A stretch of DNA of 64,000 nt, from positions 500 to 64,499 of the forward strand of contig CAJOFV010000003.1 of NCBI GenBank assembly GCA_905233925.1, read 5' to 3'. Positions 3,479 through 61,654 of this stretch are shown piece by piece; the first letter of the stretch is position 1, and the number at the start of each line of letters is the position of its first letter. Made by a program: the position numbers and the translations under genes. The notes beneath the pieces are model-generated. The model made no database searches and was not told the origin of the DNA. It was given only the letters and a program-made list of their open reading frames with translations. This stretch comes from Paludibacteraceae bacterium (GTDB taxonomy: Bacteria > Bacteroidota > Bacteroidia > Bacteroidales > Paludibacteraceae).

Positions 3479-3982
3479 ATGAACAAATTAGCGAATTTTA
3501 TTACAAAAATTATAGATTTCTTCTATAAACCCTTCCAAAAACTGCTTCCCGAGCAGCTTTTTAGGTATGCGGCATGCGGCGGAGGAAACATGGTTCTGGA
3601 TTGGGTTCTCTATTTCCTCATTTATAATTTTGTTATAGGTCATGACCTCGTCTATTTAAATCTTCAAATCTTCAAATCTTCAAATTTTCAAATTTGTCTC
3701 ACTCCGCATATTGCAACGCTTTGTATTGTCTTCCCCATTACGCTCTTCACCGGATTTTGGCTGAATAAATATGTCACATTTACCCAATCAACGCTGCATA
3801 GTTTCCGCCAGTTGATGCGCTATGTTCTTATTGTCGCGGTAAACCTCGCAATCAACTATTTCGGACTCAAACTCTGTGTCGAAGTTTGGGGCTGGTATCC
3901 CACGCCGAGCAAGATGTTTATTACGATAATTACGATATTTATATCGTTTTTCGGACAAAAATACTTTTCTTTTCGCAAATAA
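3479..3982 (+). CDS. GtrA family membrane protein
   Basis: The in-frame ATG at 3479 gives MNKLANFITKIIDFFYKPFQKLLPEQLFRYAACGGGNMVLDWVLYF, a typical GtrA N-terminus, followed by four hydrophobic helices. The upstream part of ORF 3275..3982 overlaps rsmA and its promoter. Confidence 0.8.
   Translation: MNKLANFITKIIDFFYKPFQKLLPEQLFRYAACGGGNMVLDWVLYFLIYNFVIGHDLVYLNLQIFKSSNFQICLTPHIATLCIVFPITLFTGFWLNKYVTFTQSTLHSFRQLMRYVLIVAVNLAINYFGLKLCVEVWGWYPTPSKMFITIITIFISFFGQKYFSFRK
3658..3697 (+). repeat. period-8 degenerate tandem repeat, TTCAAATC family, inside the gtrA ORF
   Basis: Units are aaatcttc x3, aaattttc and aaatttgt. It is translated in frame as NLQIFKSSNFQI. Confidence 0.9.
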
Positions 3983-4559: not shown

Positions 4560-4578
4560 CCAAAACCAACGAGCCAAT

Positions 4579-4640
4579 AGTTAGTTATTAGTTAGATATT
4601 AGTTAGTTATTAAGCACCCTTTAAGCACCCTTTAAGTAGC
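4579..4640 (+). repeat. composite short-unit repeat (TTAGTTA-type units followed by taagcaccctt x2), copy A of a dispersed element
   Basis: agttagttattagttagatattagttagttat is followed by taagcaccctt taagcaccctt taagtagc, directly upstream of ATG 4642. About 42/48 nt match the inverted copy at 49026-49073. Confidence 0.8.
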
Positions 4641-4641
4641 T

Positions 4642-5328
4642 ATGAAGAAGTTATTTATATTGCTCGTTCTGGCAATGTTATTGCCGAATGTTTATGCCAA
4701 AAAACCGCTGACTTTGTTCCTTGTCGGCGACGAAACAATGGCGGAACTCACTCAGCCTGAGGACGTTACGGATTCGGCGGCAGTTGGATGGGGACAAATG
4801 TTGCCGAAATATTTGCCGGACGATGCCATCGTCGAGAACCACGCAGTGGACGGCGCTACCACCAAATCCTTTATCAGTGAAGGACAATGGCAGGAGGTGA
4901 CAGCACGTATCAAACGCGGAAATGTAGTGATGATTCAGTTCGGCCATCACGAATATGACGAAGAAGACTATCGTCATTTCTCAACGATAGAGTACTTCGA
5001 GAACAACCTTCTGCAAATGATTAAAGAGGCGCAAAAGAAAGGCGCAAAAGTAGTTTTGCTCACGCCCACCGCAAAGAATTTCTTCAAGGATACAGTCCTT
5101 TATCCCCGTCACGGAGGATATGCGGAAGCAGTGCGTCGTGTCGCTGCGCATGCGCATCTGCCGCTCATTGATGTGGATGACTACACAACCGCATTTATTG
5201 AGAATCGCGGCGAAGAAGGTGCAGCGGAATTTTTTGCAGACACCATCCGCCTGAATGAAGAAGGCGCAAAACAGGTGGCAAAAATGGTCGCTCAGTCGGC
5301 GGCTGAACAGAAAATCAAAGGATTTTGA
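4642..5328 (+). CDS. SGNH/GDSL hydrolase-fold protein (rhamnogalacturonan acetylesterase-like) with substituted catalytic residues
   Basis: 228 aa with a signal peptide. Block I reads LVGDETMA, block II AVDGATTKSF, block III IQFGHHEYD and block V ADTIRLNEEGA. Confidence 0.8.
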   Translation: MKKLFILLVLAMLLPNVYAKKPLTLFLVGDETMAELTQPEDVTDSAAVGWGQMLPKYLPDDAIVENHAVDGATTKSFISEGQWQEVTARIKRGNVVMIQFGHHEYDEEDYRHFSTIEYFENNLLQMIKEAQKKGAKVVLLTPTAKNFFKDTVLYPRHGGYAEAVRRVAAHAHLPLIDVDDYTTAFIENRGEEGAAEFFADTIRLNEEGAKQVAKMVAQSAAEQKIKGF

Positions 5329-6480: not shown

Positions 6481-6786
6481 ATGGCAGAACAACAATTAAA
6501 CATCAAACTTACGCCTGAAGTGGCGGAGGGAACATATTCCAATATGGCGATTATTTCCCATTCTTCGTCCGAATTTCTGATAGATTTTGTACGTATGGTT
6601 CCCGGTATCAAGGATGCCAACGTCAAATCCCGCATTATCCTTGCGCCTGAACACGCAAAACGCCTGCTGTTCGCTTTGCAGGACAATCTTGCCAAGTACG
6701 AAAACCAGTACGGAAACATCCAAATTGCCGGTGCTCCCGCAAAAGGAAGTACCATTCCGATGTCATTTGGTGGCGGCGAAGCATAA
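6481..6786 (+). CDS. DUF3467 domain protein
   Basis: 101 aa starting MAEQQLNIKLTPEVAEGTYSNMAIISHSSSEFLIDFV, which I recognise as the DUF3467 pattern. Confidence 0.75.
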   Translation: MAEQQLNIKLTPEVAEGTYSNMAIISHSSSEFLIDFVRMVPGIKDANVKSRIILAPEHAKRLLFALQDNLAKYENQYGNIQIAGAPAKGSTIPMSFGGGEA

Positions 6787-6823
6787 TCTTCAAATTTTCA
6801 AATTATCAAATCTTAAATTATAC
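6784..6823 (+). repeat. period-8 degenerate tandem repeat, TTCAAATC family, intergenic
   Basis: Units are taatcttc, aaattttc, aaattatc, aaatctta and aaattata. It begins at the TAA of the DUF3467 gene and ends 4 nt before ATG 6828. Confidence 0.9.
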
Positions 6824-9782: not shown

Positions 9783-12599
9783 TTGCTAACTGCTTCCGCT
9801 TGGTCGCAGTCGGTAACGCGTGTATCTGGTGTCACGATGGACCACAATACCGGTGAACCGCTGCCCTTCGTGCAGATTATGTTCGACGGCTCCACCATTG
9901 GCACCACTTCGGACCTTGATGGTAATTTCACGCTTTCCAACACCCGCGGACTCATTTCCGTCAGCTTCCGCTCTGTCGGTTACAAAACGAAGATAATGAC
10001 CGTCAAACCAGGTCGTTCCACCGAATTGTTTGTTGTTATGGAGCCCGAAACGTACGCTTTGGAGGATGTTATTGTCAAGCCCGAAAAGACCCGTGAACGT
10101 TACCGCCGCAAAGGTAATCCGGCTGTCGAACTTATCAAGAACGTCATTGCCAACAAAGACAAGAACCGCGTCGAATCGCAGGAATCCTACATGGTAGAGA
10201 CGTACGAGAAACTGGCGATGGCGATTGAGCCTTTCGACTACGACTTGGACAAGAACAAGTTCTGGCGCGACTTTAAGTTTCTTGAATCCTACGTGGATAC
10301 GATGATGTTGGAGCGTGGCGTGCTGGTTATTGACAGCGGCAAAGTACAGATTGACAGTATCCAAATCGGCGAAGATTCCATCCAGGTCAATGTGGACAGC
10401 GTTGTCATTCTGCGTAACGAAGATGCTGCGAAAATGCAGCAGACCACCATTCTCACCATGTCTCTCCGTGAGACGATGGCGGAGGAATATTTCTCAGGTT
10501 TCCCGCGCAAGGAGCGCAAAATCATTACTGCCAAACGTTGGGAAGGCCTGGACGAACTCTTCGACAATGGTGGTATGTCCACCAACATACAAGCCATGTT
10601 CCAGCCTGTGAACATTCTGCAGAACGATGTCAATTTGCTGCTTAACCGCTTCGTAAGTCCCTTGTCCTCGTCCCTTGCGGTGTCTTTCTACCACTATTAC
10701 ATTATGGACACTGTGATTATTGAGGACACACCCTGTATTGACCTTGCCTTTGTGCCCGTCAACAGCCAGTCCTTCGGCTTTACCGGTCACCTCTACATCG
10801 TCAACGACTCGTCCTATGCCCTCAAACGTTACACCATCAATATCCCGCCGTCCATTAACATGAACTGGGTCAGCCACCTTTCCATTGCCCAGACCTTCTA
10901 CCAGTTGCCGAATGGTCTTTGGGCGCCGGAGGATGTCAATACACACGTCCGTTTCGCTATCAAGAAACGCTCCAAGCATAATATCTACGCCCGTCAGACT
11001 CGCCATTTTGATAAATATCAGTTCGGCATTACCATTCCGGACAGTCTATTCTACATGTCCGGAAACACTATTACCCGCCCGGGGGCGGACAAGCGCTCTG
11101 TGGAAGAATGGGATACGCTGCGGCCTATCAGACTGACCGGCAAAGAAACGCTTGTGGACAGCCTTGAGACCGAACTTATGCGTGTTCCCAAGTTCCGCTT
11201 TATTGTCAATACTGTTGAGGACCTCATTCAGGAATTTATCCCGACTACCCGTGTGCGCAATGCTTCCAAATGGGACTTCGGACCGATATTCAACACTTTC
11301 TCCTACAACGAACAGGAGGGTTGCCGTTTCCGTATTGGTGGTATGACTACTGCCAACACGCACCCGCGATGGTTCTTCAGCGGCTATGTCGCTTTCGGTA
11401 TTGCTGACTTGATGCCCAAAGGTGGGTTTAACATCATCCATTCCTTCCATGACAAGCCCTACCATCCATATGAGAGCCTGCGTCACAATCTGATATTCTC
11501 CTTTAGTTACGATTTGGAGGAGCTTGGTCAGACTTACCGCGTTTTGGACCGTGACCACATCTTCATGTCTATCAAGTTCAACTTCGACCCAAAGCCCATG
11601 CAGTATATTGCCAAACTGCGTCTTAAATACGAGAAGGAATATGCCAACCAGTTCTCTATCATCACGTGGTTTGACTTCATGCACAACCAGCCCAACGGCT
11701 CTTCCGGTGCAGGTAATCCTGACTGGGCTGCCCCGCGTTTTGGTCAGGACAGAAAGGGCAAGAATGCCCTCCTCTTGACCTATATGAAACGTTCCGAGGA
11801 TGGCATGTACACCGAGACGCCCTTCTATCACGACGCCATGTGGACCTTCCAGTTGCGATACTCGCCAGGCGGATACATCTACAACGACCGTCAGGGTATT
11901 GAATCGCCGTTTAACCTCTGGAAGGACGCGCCGGTCTTCCGTTTCACCAACGAAATGGGCTATATCCTGGAGGACCGCTATTTCTACAACCGTATCCAGT
12001 TCACGGCGGAGAAGCGCTTCTGGCTCTCGGCGTTCGGACACTTGGATGTGATAGGCGATATCGGTTATATTGCCAGTGCCAAAGCACCGTATACCAAACT
12101 CTTCGTGCCTGTTAGCAACCAGTCCATCCTTATGGACCCGAAGGCTTTCTCCCTCATGCAGCCGATGGAGTTCCTCATGGATCGTTTTGTGTCTGTCCAT
12201 GTCACATACTACCTCAAGGGTTGGCTGTTCAACCGTATTCCGGGCATCAAGCACCTCAAACTCCGCGAGATTGTTTCCTTCCATGCCCTTGCCGGTTATT
12301 TGGGTGACAGGAACAACCCGCTCAAGACGGACGGGCTTTATGATTTCCCTGTTTCGCACATCGAGAACGGACAGAACGTCTATGCTCGCACAGACTTTGC
12401 CATGCATAATTCCGATGGAGCCATCAAATACAGTTACATGCCTTATATGGAGATTACTGCCGGTATAGAGAATATTTTCAAACTCTTCCGTGTGGAGTAT
12501 GTCCGCCGTCTGACGCACCTTTATGCACCCGGAACCGGTGCCAAACTCGGTCCCTGGCAGCGCAACGGTATCCGTATTACTGTCCGCGTCTCTATATAA
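9783..12599 (+). CDS. carboxypeptidase-regulatory-like domain plus DUF5686-type large outer-membrane-associated protein
   Basis: 938-aa ORF from TTG 9783. The N-terminal segment VSGVTMDHNTGEPLPFVQIMFDGSTIGTTSDLDGNFTL is a CarbopepD_reg-like fold. The true start is probably upstream (see the ATT finding). Confidence 0.8.
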   Translation: MLTASAWSQSVTRVSGVTMDHNTGEPLPFVQIMFDGSTIGTTSDLDGNFTLSNTRGLISVSFRSVGYKTKIMTVKPGRSTELFVVMEPETYALEDVIVKPEKTRERYRRKGNPAVELIKNVIANKDKNRVESQESYMVETYEKLAMAIEPFDYDLDKNKFWRDFKFLESYVDTMMLERGVLVIDSGKVQIDSIQIGEDSIQVNVDSVVILRNEDAAKMQQTTILTMSLRETMAEEYFSGFPRKERKIITAKRWEGLDELFDNGGMSTNIQAMFQPVNILQNDVNLLLNRFVSPLSSSLAVSFYHYYIMDTVIIEDTPCIDLAFVPVNSQSFGFTGHLYIVNDSSYALKRYTINIPPSINMNWVSHLSIAQTFYQLPNGLWAPEDVNTHVRFAIKKRSKHNIYARQTRHFDKYQFGITIPDSLFYMSGNTITRPGADKRSVEEWDTLRPIRLTGKETLVDSLETELMRVPKFRFIVNTVEDLIQEFIPTTRVRNASKWDFGPIFNTFSYNEQEGCRFRIGGMTTANTHPRWFFSGYVAFGIADLMPKGGFNIIHSFHDKPYHPYESLRHNLIFSFSYDLEELGQTYRVLDRDHIFMSIKFNFDPKPMQYIAKLRLKYEKEYANQFSIITWFDFMHNQPNGSSGAGNPDWAAPRFGQDRKGKNALLLTYMKRSEDGMYTETPFYHDAMWTFQLRYSPGGYIYNDRQGIESPFNLWKDAPVFRFTNEMGYILEDRYFYNRIQFTAEKRFWLSAFGHLDVIGDIGYIASAKAPYTKLFVPVSNQSILMDPKAFSLMQPMEFLMDRFVSVHVTYYLKGWLFNRIPGIKHLKLREIVSFHALAGYLGDRNNPLKTDGLYDFPVSHIENGQNVYARTDFAMHNSDGAIKYSYMPYMEITAGIENIFKLFRVEYVRRLTHLYAPGTGAKLGPWQRNGIRITVRVSI

Positions 12600-12600
12600 A

Positions 12601-12639
12601 ATGACAAAATGTGTAAATGAGAAAATGAATAAATTATGA
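12601..12639 (+). repeat. period-8 AATGAGAA-family repeat forming phased ATG/TGA mini-ORFs upstream of rfbC
   Basis: atgacaaa atgtgtaa atgagaaa atgaataaatt atga. ATGs lie at 12601, 12609, 12617, 12625 and 12636. Confidence 0.9.
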
Positions 12640-18692: not shown

Positions 18693-19398
18693 CACCAACG
18701 ACTGGCTGAAGCAGCACCCTGAATGTGATGCTGTTTGGACCACGTGGCAGACAGCGGGACGCGGTCAGGCTGGCAACTCGTGGGAGAGCGAGCAGGGGAA
18801 GAACGTCCTCATGTCGCTGCGCTTCCTGAAACCCTCTGTGGTGGCGGAAGAGCAGTTCCGGATGACGATGGCGGTCAGCTTGGGCGTGCAGCACGTAGTT
18901 GCCAAACTGTTGCCGGAGGAGCAGGTCACCATCAAGTGGCCGAACGATATCTACGTGGGCGACAGGAAGATTTGCGGCATACTGATTGAAAGTACCCTTG
19001 CGGACGGACAGGTAGCCGAAGCAATTGCGGGAATAGGTCTGAATGTGAACCAGACCGCGTGGCAAGCGGGCGCACCCAATCCCGTTTCCGTGAAACAACT
19101 GACCGGCAAGGACTATGACCTGCCGGCCGTCTATGATGCCCTTTGCGAGGCGGTAAACGCCCAAATGGCACTTCTTTCGAAACCGGAAACACTCAAAGAA
19201 CACTATATCTCCGTGCTTTACCGCTTCGGACAAAAGGCGCTTTATGCGCGCCGGGCGGTCAGTCTGACGCCCTCGCGGGTGCTCACAACCATGCCGGACA
19301 ACGCCTTTGAAGGCACCATCACCGACGTGACAGAGCAGGGAGAATTAATCATAAATAACACCAAGTACCACTTCAAGGAAATCCAGTTTGTAGTATGA
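18670..19398 (+). CDS. birA: biotin--[acetyl-CoA-carboxylase] ligase
   Basis: 242 aa with the GRGQAGNSWES motif (GRGRxGRxW type) and KWPNDIY. Confidence 0.85.
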   Translation: MFISQTNSTNDWLKQHPECDAVWTTWQTAGRGQAGNSWESEQGKNVLMSLRFLKPSVVAEEQFRMTMAVSLGVQHVVAKLLPEEQVTIKWPNDIYVGDRKICGILIESTLADGQVAEAIAGIGLNVNQTAWQAGAPNPVSVKQLTGKDYDLPAVYDALCEAVNAQMALLSKPETLKEHYISVLYRFGQKALYARRAVSLTPSRVLTTMPDNAFEGTITDVTEQGELIINNTKYHFKEIQFVV

Positions 19399-26623: not shown

Positions 26624-28470
26624 TTACAGTCTGTTTCCCAACGCAGTATAAATCACTCCGTCACGAATAATCAGCAAATGACCTCCCTGAATAAATTTTC
26701 GATTTGAAGATTTGAAAATTTGAGGATTTGAAGATTGTATGACTTCTTCGAGGTCAGTGGAGACTGAAGTGCCGTCGTCGCGGACGGTGATGTAATGGTT
26801 ACCAGTCTGCATGATGTCGAGCAGCTGGCGGTAGTCCCCGGGTTTGCCCTCGCCGACGTTGTTGTGAAAAATCAGGTGCATGACCATCGACTTGGCACCC
26901 TTCGCCACGGCATATTCATAGACCTTGTAGGTAATGCCGTCCTTTGTGAGTGTAGGCGGCGCTGTTTCTCCCGGCCATTTGCCGAAGAACTCTGTGTCGC
27001 CCCAGGCATAGAGGTCAAAGGTCGCCCAGGATGTTCTGTTGTCCACATAAAGGCGGTATGAATCGAAGTTGCCGTAGTTGGAATAGACTTGGTATCCTTT
27101 CGCCTCCAGATGAATGGATGGCGAAGCGGTCAGCGTGACATCAGTCGTAGTGAAGCCTGTGCTGATGGTTTTGCTGTCCAGCATGCGTGTGTATGCGCCC
27201 GCCGTAACGCCGGAGACGGTTACATCGACCGCAGAGTTGCCGAGGTTGAGCAGTACGAGGACGATGTTGTCGCCTTTGGATTTCTCGAAAGCCAGCACCG
27301 AACTGTTGTTGGTGGTCAGCACCTTCGCATCGTACCGTCCGCGAGTGCGGGAAGGGTGTGTTTGAGGGCTATAAGCGCGCGGATGGTGTTGTGAATGGGG
27401 GTGTTGACAGTGTTCCAGTCGATGCTGTTGCGGTTGAAGTAATTGAGGATTTTGGTCTGTCCGATTTCCTGTCCGGTGTAGAGGAGGGGCATTCCGCAGA
27501 AGGTGAAGTACATCACGGTAAGCGGGGCGACGTTGCTGCCGCACTTGGTGAGGTAGTTGGACGAGAAGTTGTTGCCGATGTCGTCGTGGTTGGTGATGTA
27601 GGTCATCCGGCTCATGCCGCTGTACTTCTGATTAAGGGTGTTAATCATGTTGTTGGCAGCGTCCTTGAGTGCGTTGGCCGACGTGCCTGTGCCGACGGAT
27701 TTGATGGCCTCCGCAAAGCCCCAGGCGTAGTCGTACTTGAAGCCGGTGTTGTAGTGGTTTTCCTTGACATCGTTGGAGGTGAAGTCCGCCTCTGCGAGGA
27801 ACTCGACCGTTTTGGATTTGTTATTGTTCTGCAATTCCGCAATGGCGGTTGTCCAGAAAGCTGCGCCAATGTAAGTGGACGAGACGTAGTCACAGCGGAA
27901 GCCGTCGATGTCGGCTTCGTTGACCCAGTACTTCATGGCGGCGATCATGGCGTCGTTGAGGCCTGAACCGCCCTTGTAGTTGAGCTGATAGACGTCGCCG
28001 TAGTTGTTGGGGTGCTGTATGACATTGTTCACGCGGTAGTAATACTCGGGGTGTGAGGTCGTCCAGGGGTGGTCGAGCGAGGTGTGGTTAGGCACCCAGT
28101 CGAGCCAGACTTTCATACCGAGGTCATGTGCCGTGTTGACAAACGATTTGAGGTCGTCGAGTGTACCGTGTGCGGAATTGACAGCCTGAAAATCACGCAC
28201 CGCATACGGACTTCCAAGCGAGCCTATTTTGCCTTCCACGCCTCTGGGGAATATAGGCATGAGCCAGATGATGTCGATGCCCAACTTCCGCAGGTCGGAC
28301 AGTCGCTGCTCTGCAGCAGCGAAAGTCCCCTGGGAGGTAAAGTCATAGACATTGAGTTCGTAGATGACGCGGTTATTGTCGGTAATAGGTGTGGTGTTAT
28401 CCACATTGAGCGCCGCGAAAGCCTGCGTCACGGCGAACAGCAAAGCCGGTATGAGGAGCGATTTTCTCAT
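26624..28470 (-). pseudogene. GH13 alpha-amylase with C-terminal starch-binding module and tail motif, interrupted by a frameshift near 27330-27345
   Basis: ORF 27316..28470 holds the signal peptide and GH13 regions LDWVPNHTS, GFRCDYV and ITNHDD. ORF 26624..27544 continues in another frame from YDAKVLTTNNSSVLAFEKSKGDNIVLVLLNLG, the amylase C-domain. It then carries LYAWGDTEFFGKWPGE and the tail. Confidence 0.8.
26701..26740 (-). repeat. period-8 degenerate tandem repeat, TTCAAATC family, inside the amylase pseudogene
   Basis: The plus strand reads gatttgaa gatttgaa aatttgag gatttgaa gattgtat. On the coding (minus) strand this is translated SSNPQIFKSSN. Confidence 0.9.
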
Positions 28471-28486
28471 TTTTTCATTTTCTCAT
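28468..28486 (-). repeat. period-8 AATGAGAA-family repeat forming phased ATG/TGA mini-ORFs
   Basis: The minus strand reads ATGAGAAAATGAAAAAATG. ATGs lie at 28486, 28478 and 28470. Confidence 0.9.
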
Positions 28487-29721
28487 TTTACTTCTGCGCC
28501 GGTGGCGTTATACATCTTGCCGTCGTGGATGATGAAGAGTTGGCCGTTGTGGAAGATGAGCCTACCTCTATCTCCTCCCTGAAGGGAAGAGGACTCTCCA
28601 CCGCGAATAACTTCTACACCCTCCGGTTGCGGAACAGTCGAGCAGTCCACAGAAATGAGCGGGTGCTCGTCCTGTTCCTCGATATTCTTCTGTGTCTCGG
28701 GGTTGATGGTGTAGCAGGCGTTCTCCTTGCTTGTTTTAGCCTCTGTTTTGTTGGAGGTGCCCTCTACGCCGTCGTTGAACATGAAGGTAGCATCGTCCTT
28801 AACGGTGAACTCGTACCAGTCATCAGCGAGTGCGGTCATAGGTACGCCCGGCCAAGCGGTGAACTGTGCTTGCCATGTGGCATCCTTGCTGCCCCACGCC
28901 CAGATGCTGAGACCAGCCCAGTCAGCGAGTTTCTTCACTTTGATGGTGATGTCCTTTGCGGGGTCAGAAGGAGGAGGTGTACCGCCATCCGTAGGGTCGG
29001 GCACGGAAGCGCAGTCGGTGGTAACGCTTACGTCCTGTTTGTTGGCGATGTTTTCGAGGCAGACAGCTTCCTTAACGGCATAGTCGTTTGCCTGTTCGCC
29101 GCTGCCGTTATTGTTCAGAATGAGGTTCGCGTCCGCATAAACATGGAGGCCGTACCAGTCGTCGCCGAGGCTCTGCATCTCCGTGCCGGGCCATGCGCCG
29201 AGCAGGTCAACGTCTTTCTTGCCGGTAGCCCACTCATAAGCGGCAATCTTTTCCCAGCCAGCGGGTTTCTTCACCTTGACAATCACTTTGTCAGCGGGCT
29301 GCGGGTCGGACGGTGTATCGCCGTAGGTGCCCCATTCTCCGACACTGGGTTTCTTGTCATCATCGCCCTCGTGCCAGGCTGTGATACGGAACTGGTTCTT
29401 GTCGGTCGGGATGGATGTCTCGGCACGATTCCATTCGCCGCCCCAGATGTTGGTTTCCACCTCAGGATCTGCAGGGTTCTTGCGCAGGAAAATAGCGCTT
29501 GTGGCATCGTCCTTGATGTCGGCTTTGTAGATGTTGCCATCGACTTTGGTCATCCAGTAGTCGGCAGCGTCCTCATCGCCGGTGTTCCAAACGTGGACAG
29601 CAAACACGGGGTTGTCATCGGTCGCCCAGATGTTTGCATCCAGATAAATCGTGCGCGTTGTCTGCGCGCTTACAGCCAGAGCGACGAGCGCCAAAGCTGC
29701 GAAAGTAGAGAATCTCTTCAT
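28483..29721 (-). CDS. secreted non-catalytic starch-binding protein (three WPG/aromatic modules plus C-terminal tail motif)
   Basis: 412 aa with an SPI-type signal MKRFSTFAALALVALAVSAQT (no lipobox Cys). Modules are AAYEWATGKKDVDLLGAWPGTEM and SIWAWGSKDATWQAQFTAWPGVPM. The tail is RLIFHNGQLFIIHDGKMYNATGAEVK. Confidence 0.8.
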   Translation of the reverse strand: MKRFSTFAALALVALAVSAQTTRTIYLDANIWATDDNPVFAVHVWNTGDEDAADYWMTKVDGNIYKADIKDDATSAIFLRKNPADPEVETNIWGGEWNRAETSIPTDKNQFRITAWHEGDDDKKPSVGEWGTYGDTPSDPQPADKVIVKVKKPAGWEKIAAYEWATGKKDVDLLGAWPGTEMQSLGDDWYGLHVYADANLILNNNGSGEQANDYAVKEAVCLENIANKQDVSVTTDCASVPDPTDGGTPPPSDPAKDITIKVKKLADWAGLSIWAWGSKDATWQAQFTAWPGVPMTALADDWYEFTVKDDATFMFNDGVEGTSNKTEAKTSKENACYTINPETQKNIEEQDEHPLISVDCSTVPQPEGVEVIRGGESSSLQGGDRGRLIFHNGQLFIIHDGKMYNATGAEVK

Positions 29722-49178: not shown

Positions 49179-49242
49179 CATGATGTGGAAAGTGGCAATC
49201 AACTATAGCGCGAAAGTGGTAGAAAATACCAGAAAAATGGAT

Positions 49243-49333
49243 GAGACTTTGAGACTCTGATACCTTCGCAGAAGGTGTAACTATGCTGTTTATCAATAAG
49301 TTACGCACGAAAGTACCAGAGTCTCAAAGTATC
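49243..49333. other. long imperfect inverted repeat (19/21) just downstream of the 1485-aa gene
   Basis: gagactttgagactctgatac (49243-49263) pairs with gtaccagagtctcaaagtatc (49313-49333). The 49-nt loop holds small internal stems (ccttc-gca-gaagg and gtaact...agttac). Confidence 0.7.
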
Positions 49334-49351
49334 AAAGTCTCAGAGTATCAT
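49320..49351. repeat. period-8 degenerate tandem repeat
   Basis: agtctcaa agtatcaa agtctcag agtatcat, ending 8 nt from the stop of the 1485-aa gene. Confidence 0.8.
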
Positions 49352-53829: not shown

Positions 53830-54417
53830 TTAGTGTTTTATTAATTTCGTGAAATTGCATTGTAACTTAGCAATGCATTTATTGATTTCTTTTATTTGAC
53901 CTACGTTCTTTTCAAGCTCAATAGGTTGCATGTAAGGATTGTAAACCTCAAAGTCTAAATTCCGAGAGATATCATGCAGCCAATCTAACTCTTCTTCCGT
54001 TAAGACATTATCATACCTATGAAGTACTTTAAGTAAACGGTCATACTCGTTAATTAACTTAGATACCTGTTCAGATGATAATCCTTTGTAATGGTCTTCG
54101 TCAAATAAAGTCCATCTCTCACCTATAATGTCTTCGAGCTTATGGTGATCTTTAAGTATATCATAGAGCTCCCACTTATTACGTTTCCTATTCCTTTTAT
54201 TAGTCAAAATAACAGTTAATAAATAGACAAAAAACCCCGAGAGGTAACTGATAGCCAAACTCTCCATGATAGAATTGAAACATTTAGTTTCTTCTATATC
54301 AAGGATAGAAAATGGAATCTGCAAGATTGGGAATATCTTCGTCGCAAGTATATACATGCTCACAACAAAACCTACCCAAAGCACACAATGGACAGAAATA
54401 AACTTTTTCATAAGCAT
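53830..54417 (-). CDS. hypothetical membrane protein (two predicted TM helices plus helical C-terminal domain)
   Basis: 195-aa ORF in a very AT-rich stretch. Hydrophobic segments are VHCVLWVGFVVSMYILATKIF and LAISYLSGFFVYLLTVILT. Its ATG overlaps the upstream stop (TAATG at 54415-54419). No family recognised. Confidence 0.55.
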   Translation of the reverse strand: MLMKKFISVHCVLWVGFVVSMYILATKIFPILQIPFSILDIEETKCFNSIMESLAISYLSGFFVYLLTVILTNKRNRKRNKWELYDILKDHHKLEDIIGERWTLFDEDHYKGLSSEQVSKLINEYDRLLKVLHRYDNVLTEEELDWLHDISRNLDFEVYNPYMQPIELEKNVGQIKEINKCIAKLQCNFTKLIKH

Positions 54418-54863
54418 TATTTTTTTATGTTATTATAGACTGTTTCTACGGCTTTGATTAAAAACGGTATATTTTTGTCGTTTTTAAATTCTTTCTCGAG
54501 CCATGGTATTATTTTTTCATCAAAGGCATAATGAACTGTTTTGTCATTAAAGTCAACTTGGACTTTTGTGTAGAAACAAGTCCCCCATTGCTCCATTTGT
54601 GTTACTATCTTGTACGCTATAAGACATTTCATGACTTCTGCGTCCAGCTCTCTTGCTGTTGTCAAAAATTGAGGTTGTCCACCGACAAACTGAATTAACT
54701 CATTAGCCTTTATGTACTTATGTCTATCCACTTCCACCACATAACTCATAAGTTTTTCAATATGCTTAATAAAAGTTTGTGATTGCATTGATGTTAGGGC
54801 TGCATTTTCATCAGGTTTTGTCTTAGCTGGATAAATTCGATGAAAGATCTTTTTGAAACACAT
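54417..54863 (-). CDS. hypothetical soluble protein
   Basis: 148-aa ORF, AT-rich, first gene downstream of a TACCTTTG -7 box. No family recognised. Confidence 0.55.
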   Translation of the reverse strand: MCFKKIFHRIYPAKTKPDENAALTSMQSQTFIKHIEKLMSYVVEVDRHKYIKANELIQFVGGQPQFLTTARELDAEVMKCLIAYKIVTQMEQWGTCFYTKVQVDFNDKTVHYAFDEKIIPWLEKEFKNDKNIPFLIKAVETVYNNIKK

Positions 54864-58933: not shown

Positions 58934-59629
58934 TCAAGCGAGGTGGTCTTCGAGGAGATCGGGACGGCGGGAGCGGGTGTGCTCAAGATTCTGCTCGTAC
59001 TGCCATTCCTCGACTTTTGCCTGATGGCCGGAAAGAAGAATGTCGGGGACACGCCAACCTTTGTATTCCGCCGGACGGGTGTAAACACCGGCTTCCAACA
59101 AACCATCCTGGAAGCTATCTGACAAGGCAGATGTTTCGTCGCCAATGGCTCCCGGCAAGACGCGGACAATGGCATCCGTCATCATTGCCGCCGGCATCTC
59201 GCCGCCTGTAAGCACGAAATCGCCGATGGAATATTCCTTGGTAACAAAATGGTCGCGGACGCGCTGATCAACACCTTTATAGTGCCCGCAGAGAATAATG
59301 ATATTTTGTTTCAGAGAAAGAGCATTCGCATCCTTCTGGGTAAAGCGGTCGCCATCGGGTGCGGTGAAGATAACCTCATCGTAATCACGTTCGGCTTTGA
59401 GCGCGGAAATGCAGCGGTCAATGGGCTCAATCTGTAAAACCATGCCTGCGGAGAAGCCAAAAGCATAATCATCCACCTTGCGATGCTTGTCAAGAGTGTA
59501 GTCGCGGAGGTTGTGAACGTAAATCTCGGCGAGGCCTTTGTCTTTGGCACGCTGGATAATGGAATGGTTGAGCGGGGATTCCAACAACTCGGGGCAGGCG
59601 GTGATGATGTCGATACGTAATTTCTTCAT
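58934..59629 (-). CDS. trmD: tRNA (guanine37-N1)-methyltransferase
   Basis: 231 aa starting [28 protein letters not shown], with [12 protein letters not shown], typical of TrmD. Confidence 0.95.
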
Positions 59630-59648
59630 TTACTCATTTTCTCATTTA
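59627..59648 (-). repeat. period-8 AATGAGAA-family repeat forming phased ATG/TGA mini-ORFs
   Basis: The minus strand reads TAAATGAGAAAATGAGTAAATG. ATGs lie at 59645, 59637 and 59629. Confidence 0.9.
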
Positions 59649-59867
59649 TGGAACGGGGTCGTAGCCGGAACCGCCCCAGGGATTGCAGCGGAGGATGCGC
59701 TTGATGCCCAGCCATGTGCCTTTGAAGATGCCGTATTTCTGGACGGCTTCCACCATATACTGACTGCAGGTCGGCGTATATCGGCACGAAGGCGGCGTCA
59801 ACGGGGAAATGCAGTAGCGGTAGAAATACACCGGCAGGAGGAAAATATTGCGGAGGAATCTTTTCAT
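59646..59867 (-). CDS. yidD: membrane protein insertion efficiency factor YidD
   Basis: 73 aa containing [31 protein letters not shown] and [17 protein letters not shown]. Confidence 0.9.
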
Positions 59868-59908
59868 TTACTCATTTTCTCATTTTTTCATTTTCTCATT
59901 TTACTCAT
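59865..59908 (-). repeat. period-8 AATGAGAA-family repeat forming phased ATG/TGA mini-ORFs
   Basis: The minus strand reads ATGAGTAAAATGAGAAAATGAAAAAATGAGAAAATGAGTAAATG. ATGs lie at 59908, 59899, 59891, 59883, 59875 and 59867. Confidence 0.9.
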
Positions 59909-60275
59909 TTATGTTTTCTTCGTTGAGGCGTTTGATGGCTTTTTTGACCGCTTTTTCTATGACGGCATAGGGCTGCATGGTTTTGTCCATGTAATTTAAG
60001 GCAATCATGCACGGTTGCTGCAAAGCGTCTTTATTCAGGCGCCAGGCTTCGCGCATCCGGCGACGAAGAAGGTTGCGGTCCGTGGCATGCTTATGGAGCG
60101 ACTTGGGCGCCCAGATGAGGACTTGAGTGGTTACGGGCGAGGGGGGATGAGGCGCGGAGAGAGGGATATATGTGACGCGGAGAGGCCAAACGACAAACTT
60201 GTGCCCCTCCTTGTAGAGCGTGGCGATACGCATCTGCCCGCAGAGCCGTTCGTATTTATGAAAGGTGTTCCTCAA
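59901..60275 (-). CDS. rnpA: ribonuclease P protein component
   Basis: 124 aa, basic, sited just upstream of yidD in the conserved rnpA-yidD order. It contains an RNLLRRRMREAWR segment. Confidence 0.85.
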   Translation of the reverse strand: MRNTFHKYERLCGQMRIATLYKEGHKFVVWPLRVTYIPLSAPHPPSPVTTQVLIWAPKSLHKHATDRNLLRRRMREAWRLNKDALQQPCMIALNYMDKTMQPYAVIEKAVKKAIKRLNEENINE

Positions 60276-61012: not shown

Positions 61013-61654
61013 TTACGTAAGTAATCGGGTTGTGACCATAATAGCGCCCAAAGGCAAAAGTTCGAGCGTCACCACATATATCATAAGGTACAGCAGGGAT
61101 TTTGGTCCTGCGTAGAAATATTGCATAATTTTATAGAGCATCAATGCGACAAACAGTGCGACAATGCCGATTGCTACCCAGAGTAATACTGCGCTTTCGA
61201 GGTTGATGCAGAGCAAGGTAACCGGATAAAGCAGGAGGCATAGAATGGTCCATAGATTATCGTATTGCGGGAGGAAAAGTGCCGTCGTACGGCCTAATTC
61301 GAAGGTATATGAGACGAGCCCGGAAACGAGCATTTTCACAAGGATGATGGCGATAATGAGCAGGATAATACTGCCGTAAGTAAGCAGGGAGAAGGGGGCG
61401 TGGCTATAGGTAAACACATAAAGCGCCATTGCCACCGTGCCGATGCGGAAAGTGTTCAGCAAGAGCACGCCGTAGAAGTTCCTTGCGCGGTCACCATAGA
61501 CGCGCTCCAAGCGCGTGAACGTGCTTCGGAAAACCGAACTGAAAGAATCCGGCTGAAGCACTTCGCTGAGGACAAGGCAGAGCAAGAGCCCAAGCATCAG
61601 CCATGTGGGCCAAGCCTCGGAAAGCGGAGTCGATATGCGTGCTATTTCGGTCAT
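61013..61654 (-). CDS. DUF4271-like polytopic membrane protein
   Basis: 213 aa with about six hydrophobic helices. Its ATG overlaps the U32 stop (ATGA at 61651-61654). Confidence 0.7.
   Translation of the reverse strand: MTEIARISTPLSEAWPTWLMLGLLLCLVLSEVLQPDSFSSVFRSTFTRLERVYGDRARNFYGVLLLNTFRIGTVAMALYVFTYSHAPFSLLTYGSIILLIIAIILVKMLVSGLVSYTFELGRTTALFLPQYDNLWTILCLLLYPVTLLCINLESAVLLWVAIGIVALFVALMLYKIMQYFYAGPKSLLYLMIYVVTLELLPLGAIMVTTRLLT

Follow-up and report, generated by a model that had tools for sequence, protein, structure and literature searches.

The 64,000-nt stretch analysed here (the window; contig CAJOFV010000003.1 of assembly GCA_905233925.1, positions 500 to 64,499, a Paludibacteraceae bacterium of the order Bacteroidales) carries rnpA, yidD and trmD in succession on its minus strand. 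Window counts below refer to this whole 64-kb stretch, which has 46 predicted genes and 41 co-directional gene junctions. The rnpA and yidD genes are joined by a tandem octamer array, called a ladder below, in which the minus strand from 59925 to 59855 reads CAACGAAGAAAACATAAATGAGTAAAATGAGAAAATGAAAAAATGAGAAAATGAGTAAATGAAAAGATTCC (Table 1). It holds six ATG codons; the last is the real yidD start and the other five are decoys. The TGA of every mini open reading frame (mini-ORF) in the ladder overlaps the following ATG as ATGA, and the rnpA stop codon, TAA (59903-59901), lies inside the first unit, which is made up of the last three rnpA codons, AAT GAG TAA. The first-pass annotation had given these ATG positions, the TGA/ATG overlaps and the placement of the rnpA stop, and all are borne out by the sequence and by a script. 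It had also called the six starts phased, which is right as to their positions, but the first spacing is 9 nt (the other four are 8 nt), so that ATGs 59908 and 59899 share a frame; its list of mini-ORFs (MSKMRK, MKK, MRK and MSK) is correct but needs a nested MRK from 59899 added to it. Tandem Repeats Finder (TRF) assigns the tract a period of 8, 5.9 copies and 85% matches, so that it has the three or more head-to-tail copies of a 5-11-nt unit that characterize short tandem repeats and long simple sequence repeats (LSSRs). The 48-nt tract contains 29 A, 10 G and 9 T and has no C. Four of the five decoy ATGs have A at -3 and all have AAA or TAA directly 5' of them. At the real yidD and trmD starts position -3 is T, which makes their context poorer than that of the decoys.

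Table 1. Ladders in the window, their flanking genes, and the six ATG codons of the rnpA-yidD ladder, which come from a script listing all ATGs and their frames
Feature	Positions	Strand	Description or peptide	Stop codon	Basis or remark
rnpA (RNase P protein)	59901..60233	-			PF00825 on the identical gene in L001-L003
rnpA-to-yidD ladder	59864..59911	-	about six AAATGARN units, period 8, first spacing 9		TRF and script
ATG 59908	59908	-	MSKMRK	TGA 59890-59888	
ATG 59899	59899	-	MRK	TGA 59890-59888	nested in MSKMRK; frame and stop in common with ATG 59908
ATG 59891	59891	-	MKK	TGA 59882-59880	
ATG 59883	59883	-	MRK	TGA 59874-59872	
ATG 59875	59875	-	MSK	TGA 59866-59864	
ATG 59867	59867	-	YidD, MKRFLRNIF...		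real start
yidD	59646..59867	-			PF01809 and homologues; ATG 59867-59865 is part of the last ladder unit
yidD-to-trmD ladder	59626..59648	-			TRF and script
trmD	58934..59629	-			PF01746; start codon is the last unit of the yidD-trmD ladder
CBM26-protein-to-alpha-amylase ladder	28461..28489	-			CBM26 protein 28483-29721, alpha-amylase gene 27316-28470
DUF5686-gene-to-rmlC ladder	12598..12639	+			DUF5686 stop 12597-12599, rmlC ATG 12636

The rnpA-yidD ladder is not alone, and the first-pass annotation was right to expect the same design at other junctions of the window. The motif AATGAN3AATGA occurs nine times where 0.27 occurrences are expected, and none of 100 shuffled sequences reached nine; the nine matches make up four arrays, each on the sense strand of its flanking genes and each stretching from one gene's TAA as far as the ATG of the co-directional gene that follows. 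The yidD-trmD ladder runs TAA, ATG AGA AAA TGA, ATG AGT AAA TGA and then the trmD ATG, and over its 3' 23 nt it matches the 3' end of the rnpA-yidD ladder exactly. The ladder before the alpha-amylase gene reads MRK-stop, MKK-stop and then MRKSLLIPALLF, and at this site a 31-nt stretch matches the inner part of the rnpA ladder base for base. The rmlC ladder has four decoy ATGs with a last spacing of 11 nt, yet its last stop still overlaps the rmlC ATG; according to the script, the terminal TGA of every decoy ORF in all four ladders overlaps a following ATG, and the chain thus remains closed off the 8-nt spacing, at 9 nt in the rnpA ladder and at 11 nt in the rmlC ladder. By comparison, 35 of the 46 predicted genes have no ATG in the 24 nt 5' of their start, and two or more ATGs occur there in the four ladder genes only (a GtrA-like entry with a mis-set start being set aside). 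ATGA is present at 25 of the 46 gene starts and ATGA[AG]A at 11. The sequence also bears out the simple overlaps listed in the first-pass annotation, with ATGA at positions 19395-19398 and again at 61651-61654 and TAATG at 54415-54419.

An assembly artefact or a chance occurrence can be excluded, since the rnpA-yidD and yidD-trmD ladders are identical in three independent metagenome assemblies whose contigs are 99.6-99.97% identical to the window, and since the motif is present nine times against 0.27 expected; no copy-number difference at either ladder was found among these three contigs. The species is present in the metagenomes ERZ28573570, ERZ27234821 and ERZ1667847. A structured RNA or known RNA family is likewise excluded. 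The ladder region is essentially unstructured (-5.2 kcal/mol over 101 nt, z = 0.59 against shuffled sequences, hence no better than these), and an Rfam scan of the whole 64-kb window gave no matches at the gathering score.

The origin of the rnpA-yidD ladder can be read from its relatives, taken as the closest YidD homologues in Paludibacteraceae; the DNA around eight of these was fetched and the junctions were read by eye. In L129 and L130 (YidD 85% identical) the rnpA TGA overlaps the yidD ATG in a 4-nt ATGA (GAATGAAAAAG); in L124, L131 and L125 (95, 92 and 90% identical, respectively) the two genes overlap by 20 nt (CTGAATGAAGAAACTGATTCGTAA or equivalent), and in L134 and L135 (88% identical) by 34 nt. 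No ladder was found at the rnpA/yidD junction of any of these seven, whose YidD proteins are 85-95% identical. When the junctions are aligned by eye, AACGAAGAAAAC in the window (which encodes the rnpA C-terminus NEEN) falls opposite the relatives' AATGAAGAAACT, where their yidD starts, and the window's yidD start lies 56 nt (7 x 8) beyond that site. In the register TGARNAAA, the tract divides into the units CGAAGAAA / ACATAAA / TGAGTAAAA / TGAGAAAA / TGAAAAAA / TGAGAAAA / TGAGTAAA, followed by TGAAAAGA, which is part of the gene. Degeneracy is greatest at the 5' end, and the 5'-most unit, CGAAGAAA, matches the relatives' yidD start TGAAGAAA; by this alignment it is the decayed old yidD start. 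This match indicates a local duplication and not an insertion from elsewhere, and we regard the origin of the ladder, by tandem duplication of the yidD start-codon octamer in place, as largely settled on the comparative evidence. The duplication thereby converted an rnpA/yidD overlap into a 33-nt spacer. The first-pass annotation had offered slipped-strand duplication of the A-rich start context as an alternative to a relay, and had suggested that orthologous junctions be aligned. The plain overlaps of the relatives and the 7 x 8 nt of extra sequence support slipped-strand duplication as the origin, and the alignment finds direct overlaps with no ladder where conservation of the ATG/TGA phasing was to be looked for. 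A dispersed mobile element had been considered in view of the 31-nt identity between the rnpA ladder and the ladder at 28461 and of a 27-mer present in 18 metagenome stretches. It was discounted, both because there are only two unit types (GAGA and GAAA), so that a match in the order of three units is expected about 1 time in 8, and because of the local origin of the rnpA ladder. In L126-L128 (YidD homologue P0006), yidD has left its place beside rnpA; it lies after a gene for a CDP-alcohol phosphatidyltransferase and overlaps it by 8 nt, and a UvrA-like gene comes after rnpA.

The chain of start and stop codons follows from simple arithmetic. If an ATGA unit has length p, a given ATG meets an in-frame TGA k copies further on when k*p = 2 (mod 3); with p = 8 this occurs at the next copy, with p = 7 at every second copy, and it fails only if p is a multiple of three. 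A chain of mini-ORFs therefore arises because an ATGA unit has been repeated with a length that is not a multiple of three, and the first-pass statement that 8 nt is exactly the length required goes too far, as 7 nt also gives a chain. The ATG/TGA phasing is thus an automatic consequence of duplication and no independent sign of design. Phasing of the 3n-1 type between the last array ATG and the downstream start was also considered in the broad AATGA sample described next, and it showed no enrichment (3 of 12 fit).

Arrays with periods of seven and eight are common in Bacteroidota. A scan for AATGAN3 x4 over 185,579 species genomes gave at least 120 stretches, of which about three quarters of the matches listed are from Bacteroidota. 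Other tandem arrays in those 120 listed loci have mostly period 7 (66) or period 8 (47), with three of period 6 and 11 of period 9. Among the matches listed, the AATGA x4 arrays are upstream of a start in sense orientation in 33 cases and in antisense orientation in 32, beside gene ends in 97 and inside genes in 10, and many have an inverted partner array with which they form a hairpin. The first-pass annotation had named equal occurrence of such arrays in the opposite orientation as an outcome that would tell against a relay, and for AATGA arrays as a whole this is what is found (33 vs 32). The ATG content of by-catch arrays on either strand (8 of 68 heptamer and 12 of 46 octamer units) was not used, the sample being too small and biased. 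In the window, 7 of 12 tandem arrays have period 8.

The yidD/trmD junction illustrates this background. In L131 the spacer (1456-1512) holds (CCTTTCA/ATTTTCA)x7, in L125 (5259-5343) it holds (CCTAATA)x3, and in L132 and L133 (10306-10418) about 12 units resembling GTTAAATC; no array was found at this junction in L129 or L134. Because relatives hold unrelated 7-8-nt arrays at the same place, different repeats have repeatedly colonized the junction.

The A-rich (AAATGARA)n subfamily, to which the window ladders belong, is distributed quite differently from the AATGA arrays as a whole. Exact matches to the 27-mer AATGAGAAAATGAAAAAATGAGAAAAT are present in 18 metagenome stretches that represent about 14 distinct loci; ORF-based automatic gene calls gave shadow ORFs across antisense arrays, and the loci were therefore classified by eye from the sequence. 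At 12 of the ~14 the A-rich strand is the sense strand and directly follows the stop of a long co-directional ORF, with this upstream stop in or beside the first unit. Seven of these 12 terminate exactly in the ATG of the next gene, e.g. MKKVLLFFAAVVCAAG in L142, two fall 12-24 nt short of the next start and three face a convergent gene; in L141 and L150 the ladder ends in the start of MKKFQDRLKE. With the four window ladders included there are about 16 sense loci and one antisense locus, and 13 of the 16 sense loci bridge a stop to a start (including the two that end 12-24 nt short). All four window arrays and 9 of the ~14 metagenome loci lead in forward orientation into a start. Thus the orientation count that fails for the broad set holds for the A-rich subfamily, which is strongly sense and sits at stop/start junctions. 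Of the 41 co-directional junctions in the window only about 4 fall within the range -4 to +1, and the A-rich ladders are therefore concentrated at former stop/start overlaps. Such enrichment at tight junctions is what a relay requires, but it is also predicted by birth at stop/start overlaps. The bias could reflect birth there, in that the duplicated octamer holds both a stop and a start, or survival only there, in that ATGA coupling keeps expression.

The (AAATGARA)n family also appears to turn over quickly. In 172 kb of DNA from the relatives no ladder of three or more units was found, the sole match being a two-unit AATGA repeat in L131, and L143 and L152, which are 98.8% identical, differ by one unit in the A-rich array. 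Ladder conservation between L136 and L140 (flanks 82-88% identical) was considered as a sign of selection and dropped, the copy being antisense within coding sequence. That antisense A-rich copy (L136 1659-2079, L140 3201-3621, minus strand) codes for the hydrophobic core of the signal peptide of a lipoprotein (MKTSFSHFFIFSFIMLLAAC); the same lipoprotein gene is joined to the stop of the gene upstream by a sense ladder, and the two copies form an inverted repeat around the start codon.

We favor, with a probability of roughly 0.6, the interpretation that the rnpA-yidD ladder is a tolerated by-product of 7-8-nt array formation in Bacteroidota as opposed to a device under selection for carrying ribosomes. 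Strand slippage at an originally overlapping rnpA/yidD junction would have duplicated the 8 nt around the start of yidD repeatedly and so built the array. Each 8-nt (3n-1) copy supplies an AUG whose frame ends two codons on, at the TGA of the copy that follows; rnpA has its stop region in the first copy and yidD its real start in the last. What results is a C-free, unstructured, A-rich 33-nt spacer with five decoy AUGs. A ribosome that starts on a decoy AUG would be released on top of the next AUG, and so would one terminating at the end of rnpA, two bases ahead of ATG 59899; because of such release there should be no out-of-frame reading across the yidD start and the -4 coupling should be roughly kept, and the array may persist because it is translationally safe. 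The placement of the A-rich ladders fits tolerance through -4 coupling, much as has been proposed for mycobacterial interspersed repetitive units (MIRUs), and it would also fit a genuine relay.

Several observations weigh against a tolerated by-product. The ladder genes are the only ones in the window with at least two upstream ATGs, and AUG is depleted around start codons in Bacteroidetes (PMC6847099); because of this depletion, several ladders in 64 kb are more than simple tolerance would predict. Purely neutral birth at any ATGARAA start predicts that ordinary spacer comes before most ladders, whereas 12 of the ~14 metagenome ladders and all four window ladders begin on or beside the upstream stop, and either a birth bias or selection tied to the stop/start junction is at work. 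The arrays are identical in the three strains mentioned above. Furthermore, AATGACNN arrays are fused to the start of a DHFR-like gene (MTISIIVAI...) in two Mucilaginibacter species with about 75% DNA identity (L021 953-1006, seven units; L025 1484-1521, five units), and the persistence of a ladder across species could reflect selection. Finally, tolerance does not itself account for the preference for periods 7-8.

The strongest of the alternatives, which we nevertheless consider unlikely, is a selected ribosome relay or loading ramp of the kind put forward in the first-pass annotation: the ladder AUGs would capture ribosomes de novo, or those terminating on rnpA, and pass them on to yidD, and serial termination-reinitiation at the ATGA overlaps would raise or stabilize yidD translation. 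The good context of the decoys speaks for it, as A at -3, present in four of the five, is a positive determinant of initiation in Flavobacterium (PMC6847099), but the real yidD and trmD starts, with T at -3, are worse placed than the decoys they would receive ribosomes from. The unstructured tract, the position of (AAATGARA)n on the sense strand over the exact span from upstream stop to downstream start at most loci, the chain kept closed across the 9-nt (rnpA) and 11-nt (rmlC) spacings, and the prominence of the ladders against AUG depletion near Bacteroidetes starts would all suit a relay; the automatic phasing, however, takes away one sign of selection, and AATGA arrays overall (among the matches listed) have neither orientation nor start bias. 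Reinitiation at ATGA has been shown experimentally in Escherichia coli and Haloferax (PMC6728339), and in PMC12548453 a short upstream ORF (uORF) is accepted as able to "deliver" a ribosome to a -4-coupled gene. Yet a single direct overlap suffices in the relatives, and four or five serial reinitiations should hand on fewer ribosomes than one. The ladder is also missing from close relatives, its turnover appears to be rapid, and arrays with no ATG fill their yidD/trmD junctions. A wider version of this idea, in which (AAATGARA)n would be a selected device of Bacteroidales blind to the Shine-Dalgarno (SD) sequence that replaces the overlap while keeping or tuning the coupling, and in which 7-8-nt junction arrays would form a functional class, seems to us rather doubtful.

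It is considerably less probable that the octamer array serves as a multivalent mRNA or DNA dock for a trans-acting factor such as bS1, an RRM-type RNA-binding protein or a small RNA. One unit family does occur at four unlinked junctions in 64 kb and at many unrelated rumen-type metagenome junctions, but this recurrence is accounted for by the common gene start ATGARAA, and quite different units occupy the yidD/trmD junction in relatives. The sequence is single-stranded and purine-rich and there is a precedent in forward-oriented heptamer repeats beside start codons (PMC4679880), against which stands the lack of an Rfam match. Phase variation, in which copy-number slippage of the 8-nt unit would switch yidD on and off, is very improbable: the repeat is non-triplet and beside a start codon, and L143 and L152 differ by one unit, but when whole units are gained or lost neither the chain nor the rnpA stop or the yidD start is disturbed, so that unit number switches neither frame nor promoter spacing, the three strains do not differ in copy number at the rnpA-yidD or yidD-trmD ladders, the units are imperfect, and rnpA, yidD and trmD are housekeeping genes and not surface or variable ones.

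Several known systems resemble the ladders in part. MIRU units are tens of bases long. The two share a small ORF that overlaps the downstream start at -4 spacing, which in the ladders takes the form of ATGA and is found in all four. They differ in that MIRUs are a mycobacterial sequence family thought to be mobile, whereas the ladder unit is 8 nt long, encodes Met and two residues, derives from the local start codon and is found in a Bacteroidales host; an octamer AAATGARN in a Paludibacteraceae-like genome is not a member of the MIRU sequence family, and the rnpA-yidD ladder does not have the character of a mobile insertion from elsewhere. The summary in PMC12548453 describes MIRUs as repeats at start codons and intergenic operon junctions with a small ORF -4-coupled to the next ORF, a coupling that is taken there to allow the repeat to be kept while the gene downstream is little affected. 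Direct repeats of the heptamer TAACTGA, mostly in forward orientation and a few nucleotides 5' of start codons, are known from Beggiatoaceae, cyanobacteria and some Bacteroidetes including Paludibacter; they sometimes overlap the end of the upstream ORF, and a binding role has been suggested for them (MacGregor 2015, PMC4679880). Like the ladders, they are short non-triplet tandem units at many loci near starts. However, their 7-nt unit has stops (TAA and TGA) with no ATG and forms no start/stop chain, whereas the ladder unit, the octamer AAATGARN, contains the start codon and is fused to the gene start.

The heptamer short tandemly repeated repetitive (STRR) sequences of cyanobacteria are a known class of short tandem repeat. 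STRRs and prokaryotic LSSRs resemble the ladders in having head-to-tail 7-8-nt units that are mainly intergenic, lineage-specific and probably due to replication slippage, with heptamers the commonest. In the summary of Mrazek et al. 2007 given in PMC4679880, prokaryotic LSSRs with 5-11-nt units show no concentration near translation starts, and units embedding overlapping start and stop codons are not described there. Termination-reinitiation coupling at ATGA overlaps is known (Huber et al. 2019, PMC6728339). Each ladder step is a canonical 4-nt stop/start overlap between co-directional ORFs, but in the cases known so far two real genes are joined by one such overlap. To our knowledge, Bacteroidetes use no SD sequence for reinitiation. 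Thus 5-11-nt repeats, heptamers 5' of starts, -4 coupling and MIRUs are already known, and what appears to be new is a start-codon octamer that chains three-codon ORFs stop to start and recurs across gut and rumen Bacteroidales; no description of such a serial chain was found in searches of the literature on octa- and heptanucleotide repeats of Bacteroidetes and on uORF ladders.

Bacteroidia ribosomes ignore Shine-Dalgarno sequences, and here are housekeeping and glycan-utilization genes with two to five perfect decoy AUGs directly before the real AUG. If the decoys are used, the ladders offer a natural test of how efficiently SD-blind ribosomes reinitiate at ATGA overlaps and of whether tiny ORFs can deliver ribosomes to a downstream gene; if they are not used, the ladders show start-site choice among near-identical neighbors. 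The ladders also show micro-duplication of a junction to be a way of resolving gene overlaps. Such arrays also mislead gene callers. Many YidD homologues (among them P0012, P0023, P0049, P0052 and P0072) are annotated with N-terminal extensions of about 10-30 residues, and P0002 with one of about 55; several of the extensions are repetitive (e.g. MENDQSPITNHQSPLSP...), and the one in L132 (10001-10100) continues across a short tandem array that lies where rnpA and yidD meet. These extended N-termini are probably mis-called starts.

Other short-period arrays lie elsewhere in the window. Three (AAATCTTC)n arrays, whose unit contains no ATG, lie at 3658-3693, 6785-6821 and 26701-26736, two of them within coding sequence, and with the same unit at three unrelated loci local seeding is no explanation. 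The first (plus strand) is a 36-nt (AAATCTTC)x4.5 array in frame in a GtrA-family gene (PF04138), where it encodes ...LNLQIFKSSNFQI... between predicted membrane segments; the 8-nt repeat is tolerated there because its total length is a multiple of three. The second, which is sense-oriented and contains no ATG, fills the gap separating a DUF3467 gene from one for a PNP/UDP phosphorylase. The third, GATTTGAA (the reverse complement of the AAATCTTC unit), encodes SSNPQIFKSSN in the C-terminal part of a CBM26-containing ORF (26624-27544, minus strand), which overlaps the amylase ORF 27316-28470 in a different frame; this arrangement suggests that a single amylase-CBM26 gene may have been split by a frameshift. 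An inverted pair of period-8 (AAAGTMTC)n arrays, about 50 nt apart at 49242-49260 (TGAGACTC) and 49310-49350 (AAAGTATC/AAAGTCTC), lies directly 3' of a 1485-aa ORF and could form a long terminator-like hairpin; similar inverted pairs are present at many Bacteroidota loci (L006, L009, L040 and L088). Lastly, two adjacent period-11 arrays, TAGTTAGTTAT x3.2 and TTAAGCACCCT x2.5 (4578-4636), lie directly 5' of the gene that starts at 4642.

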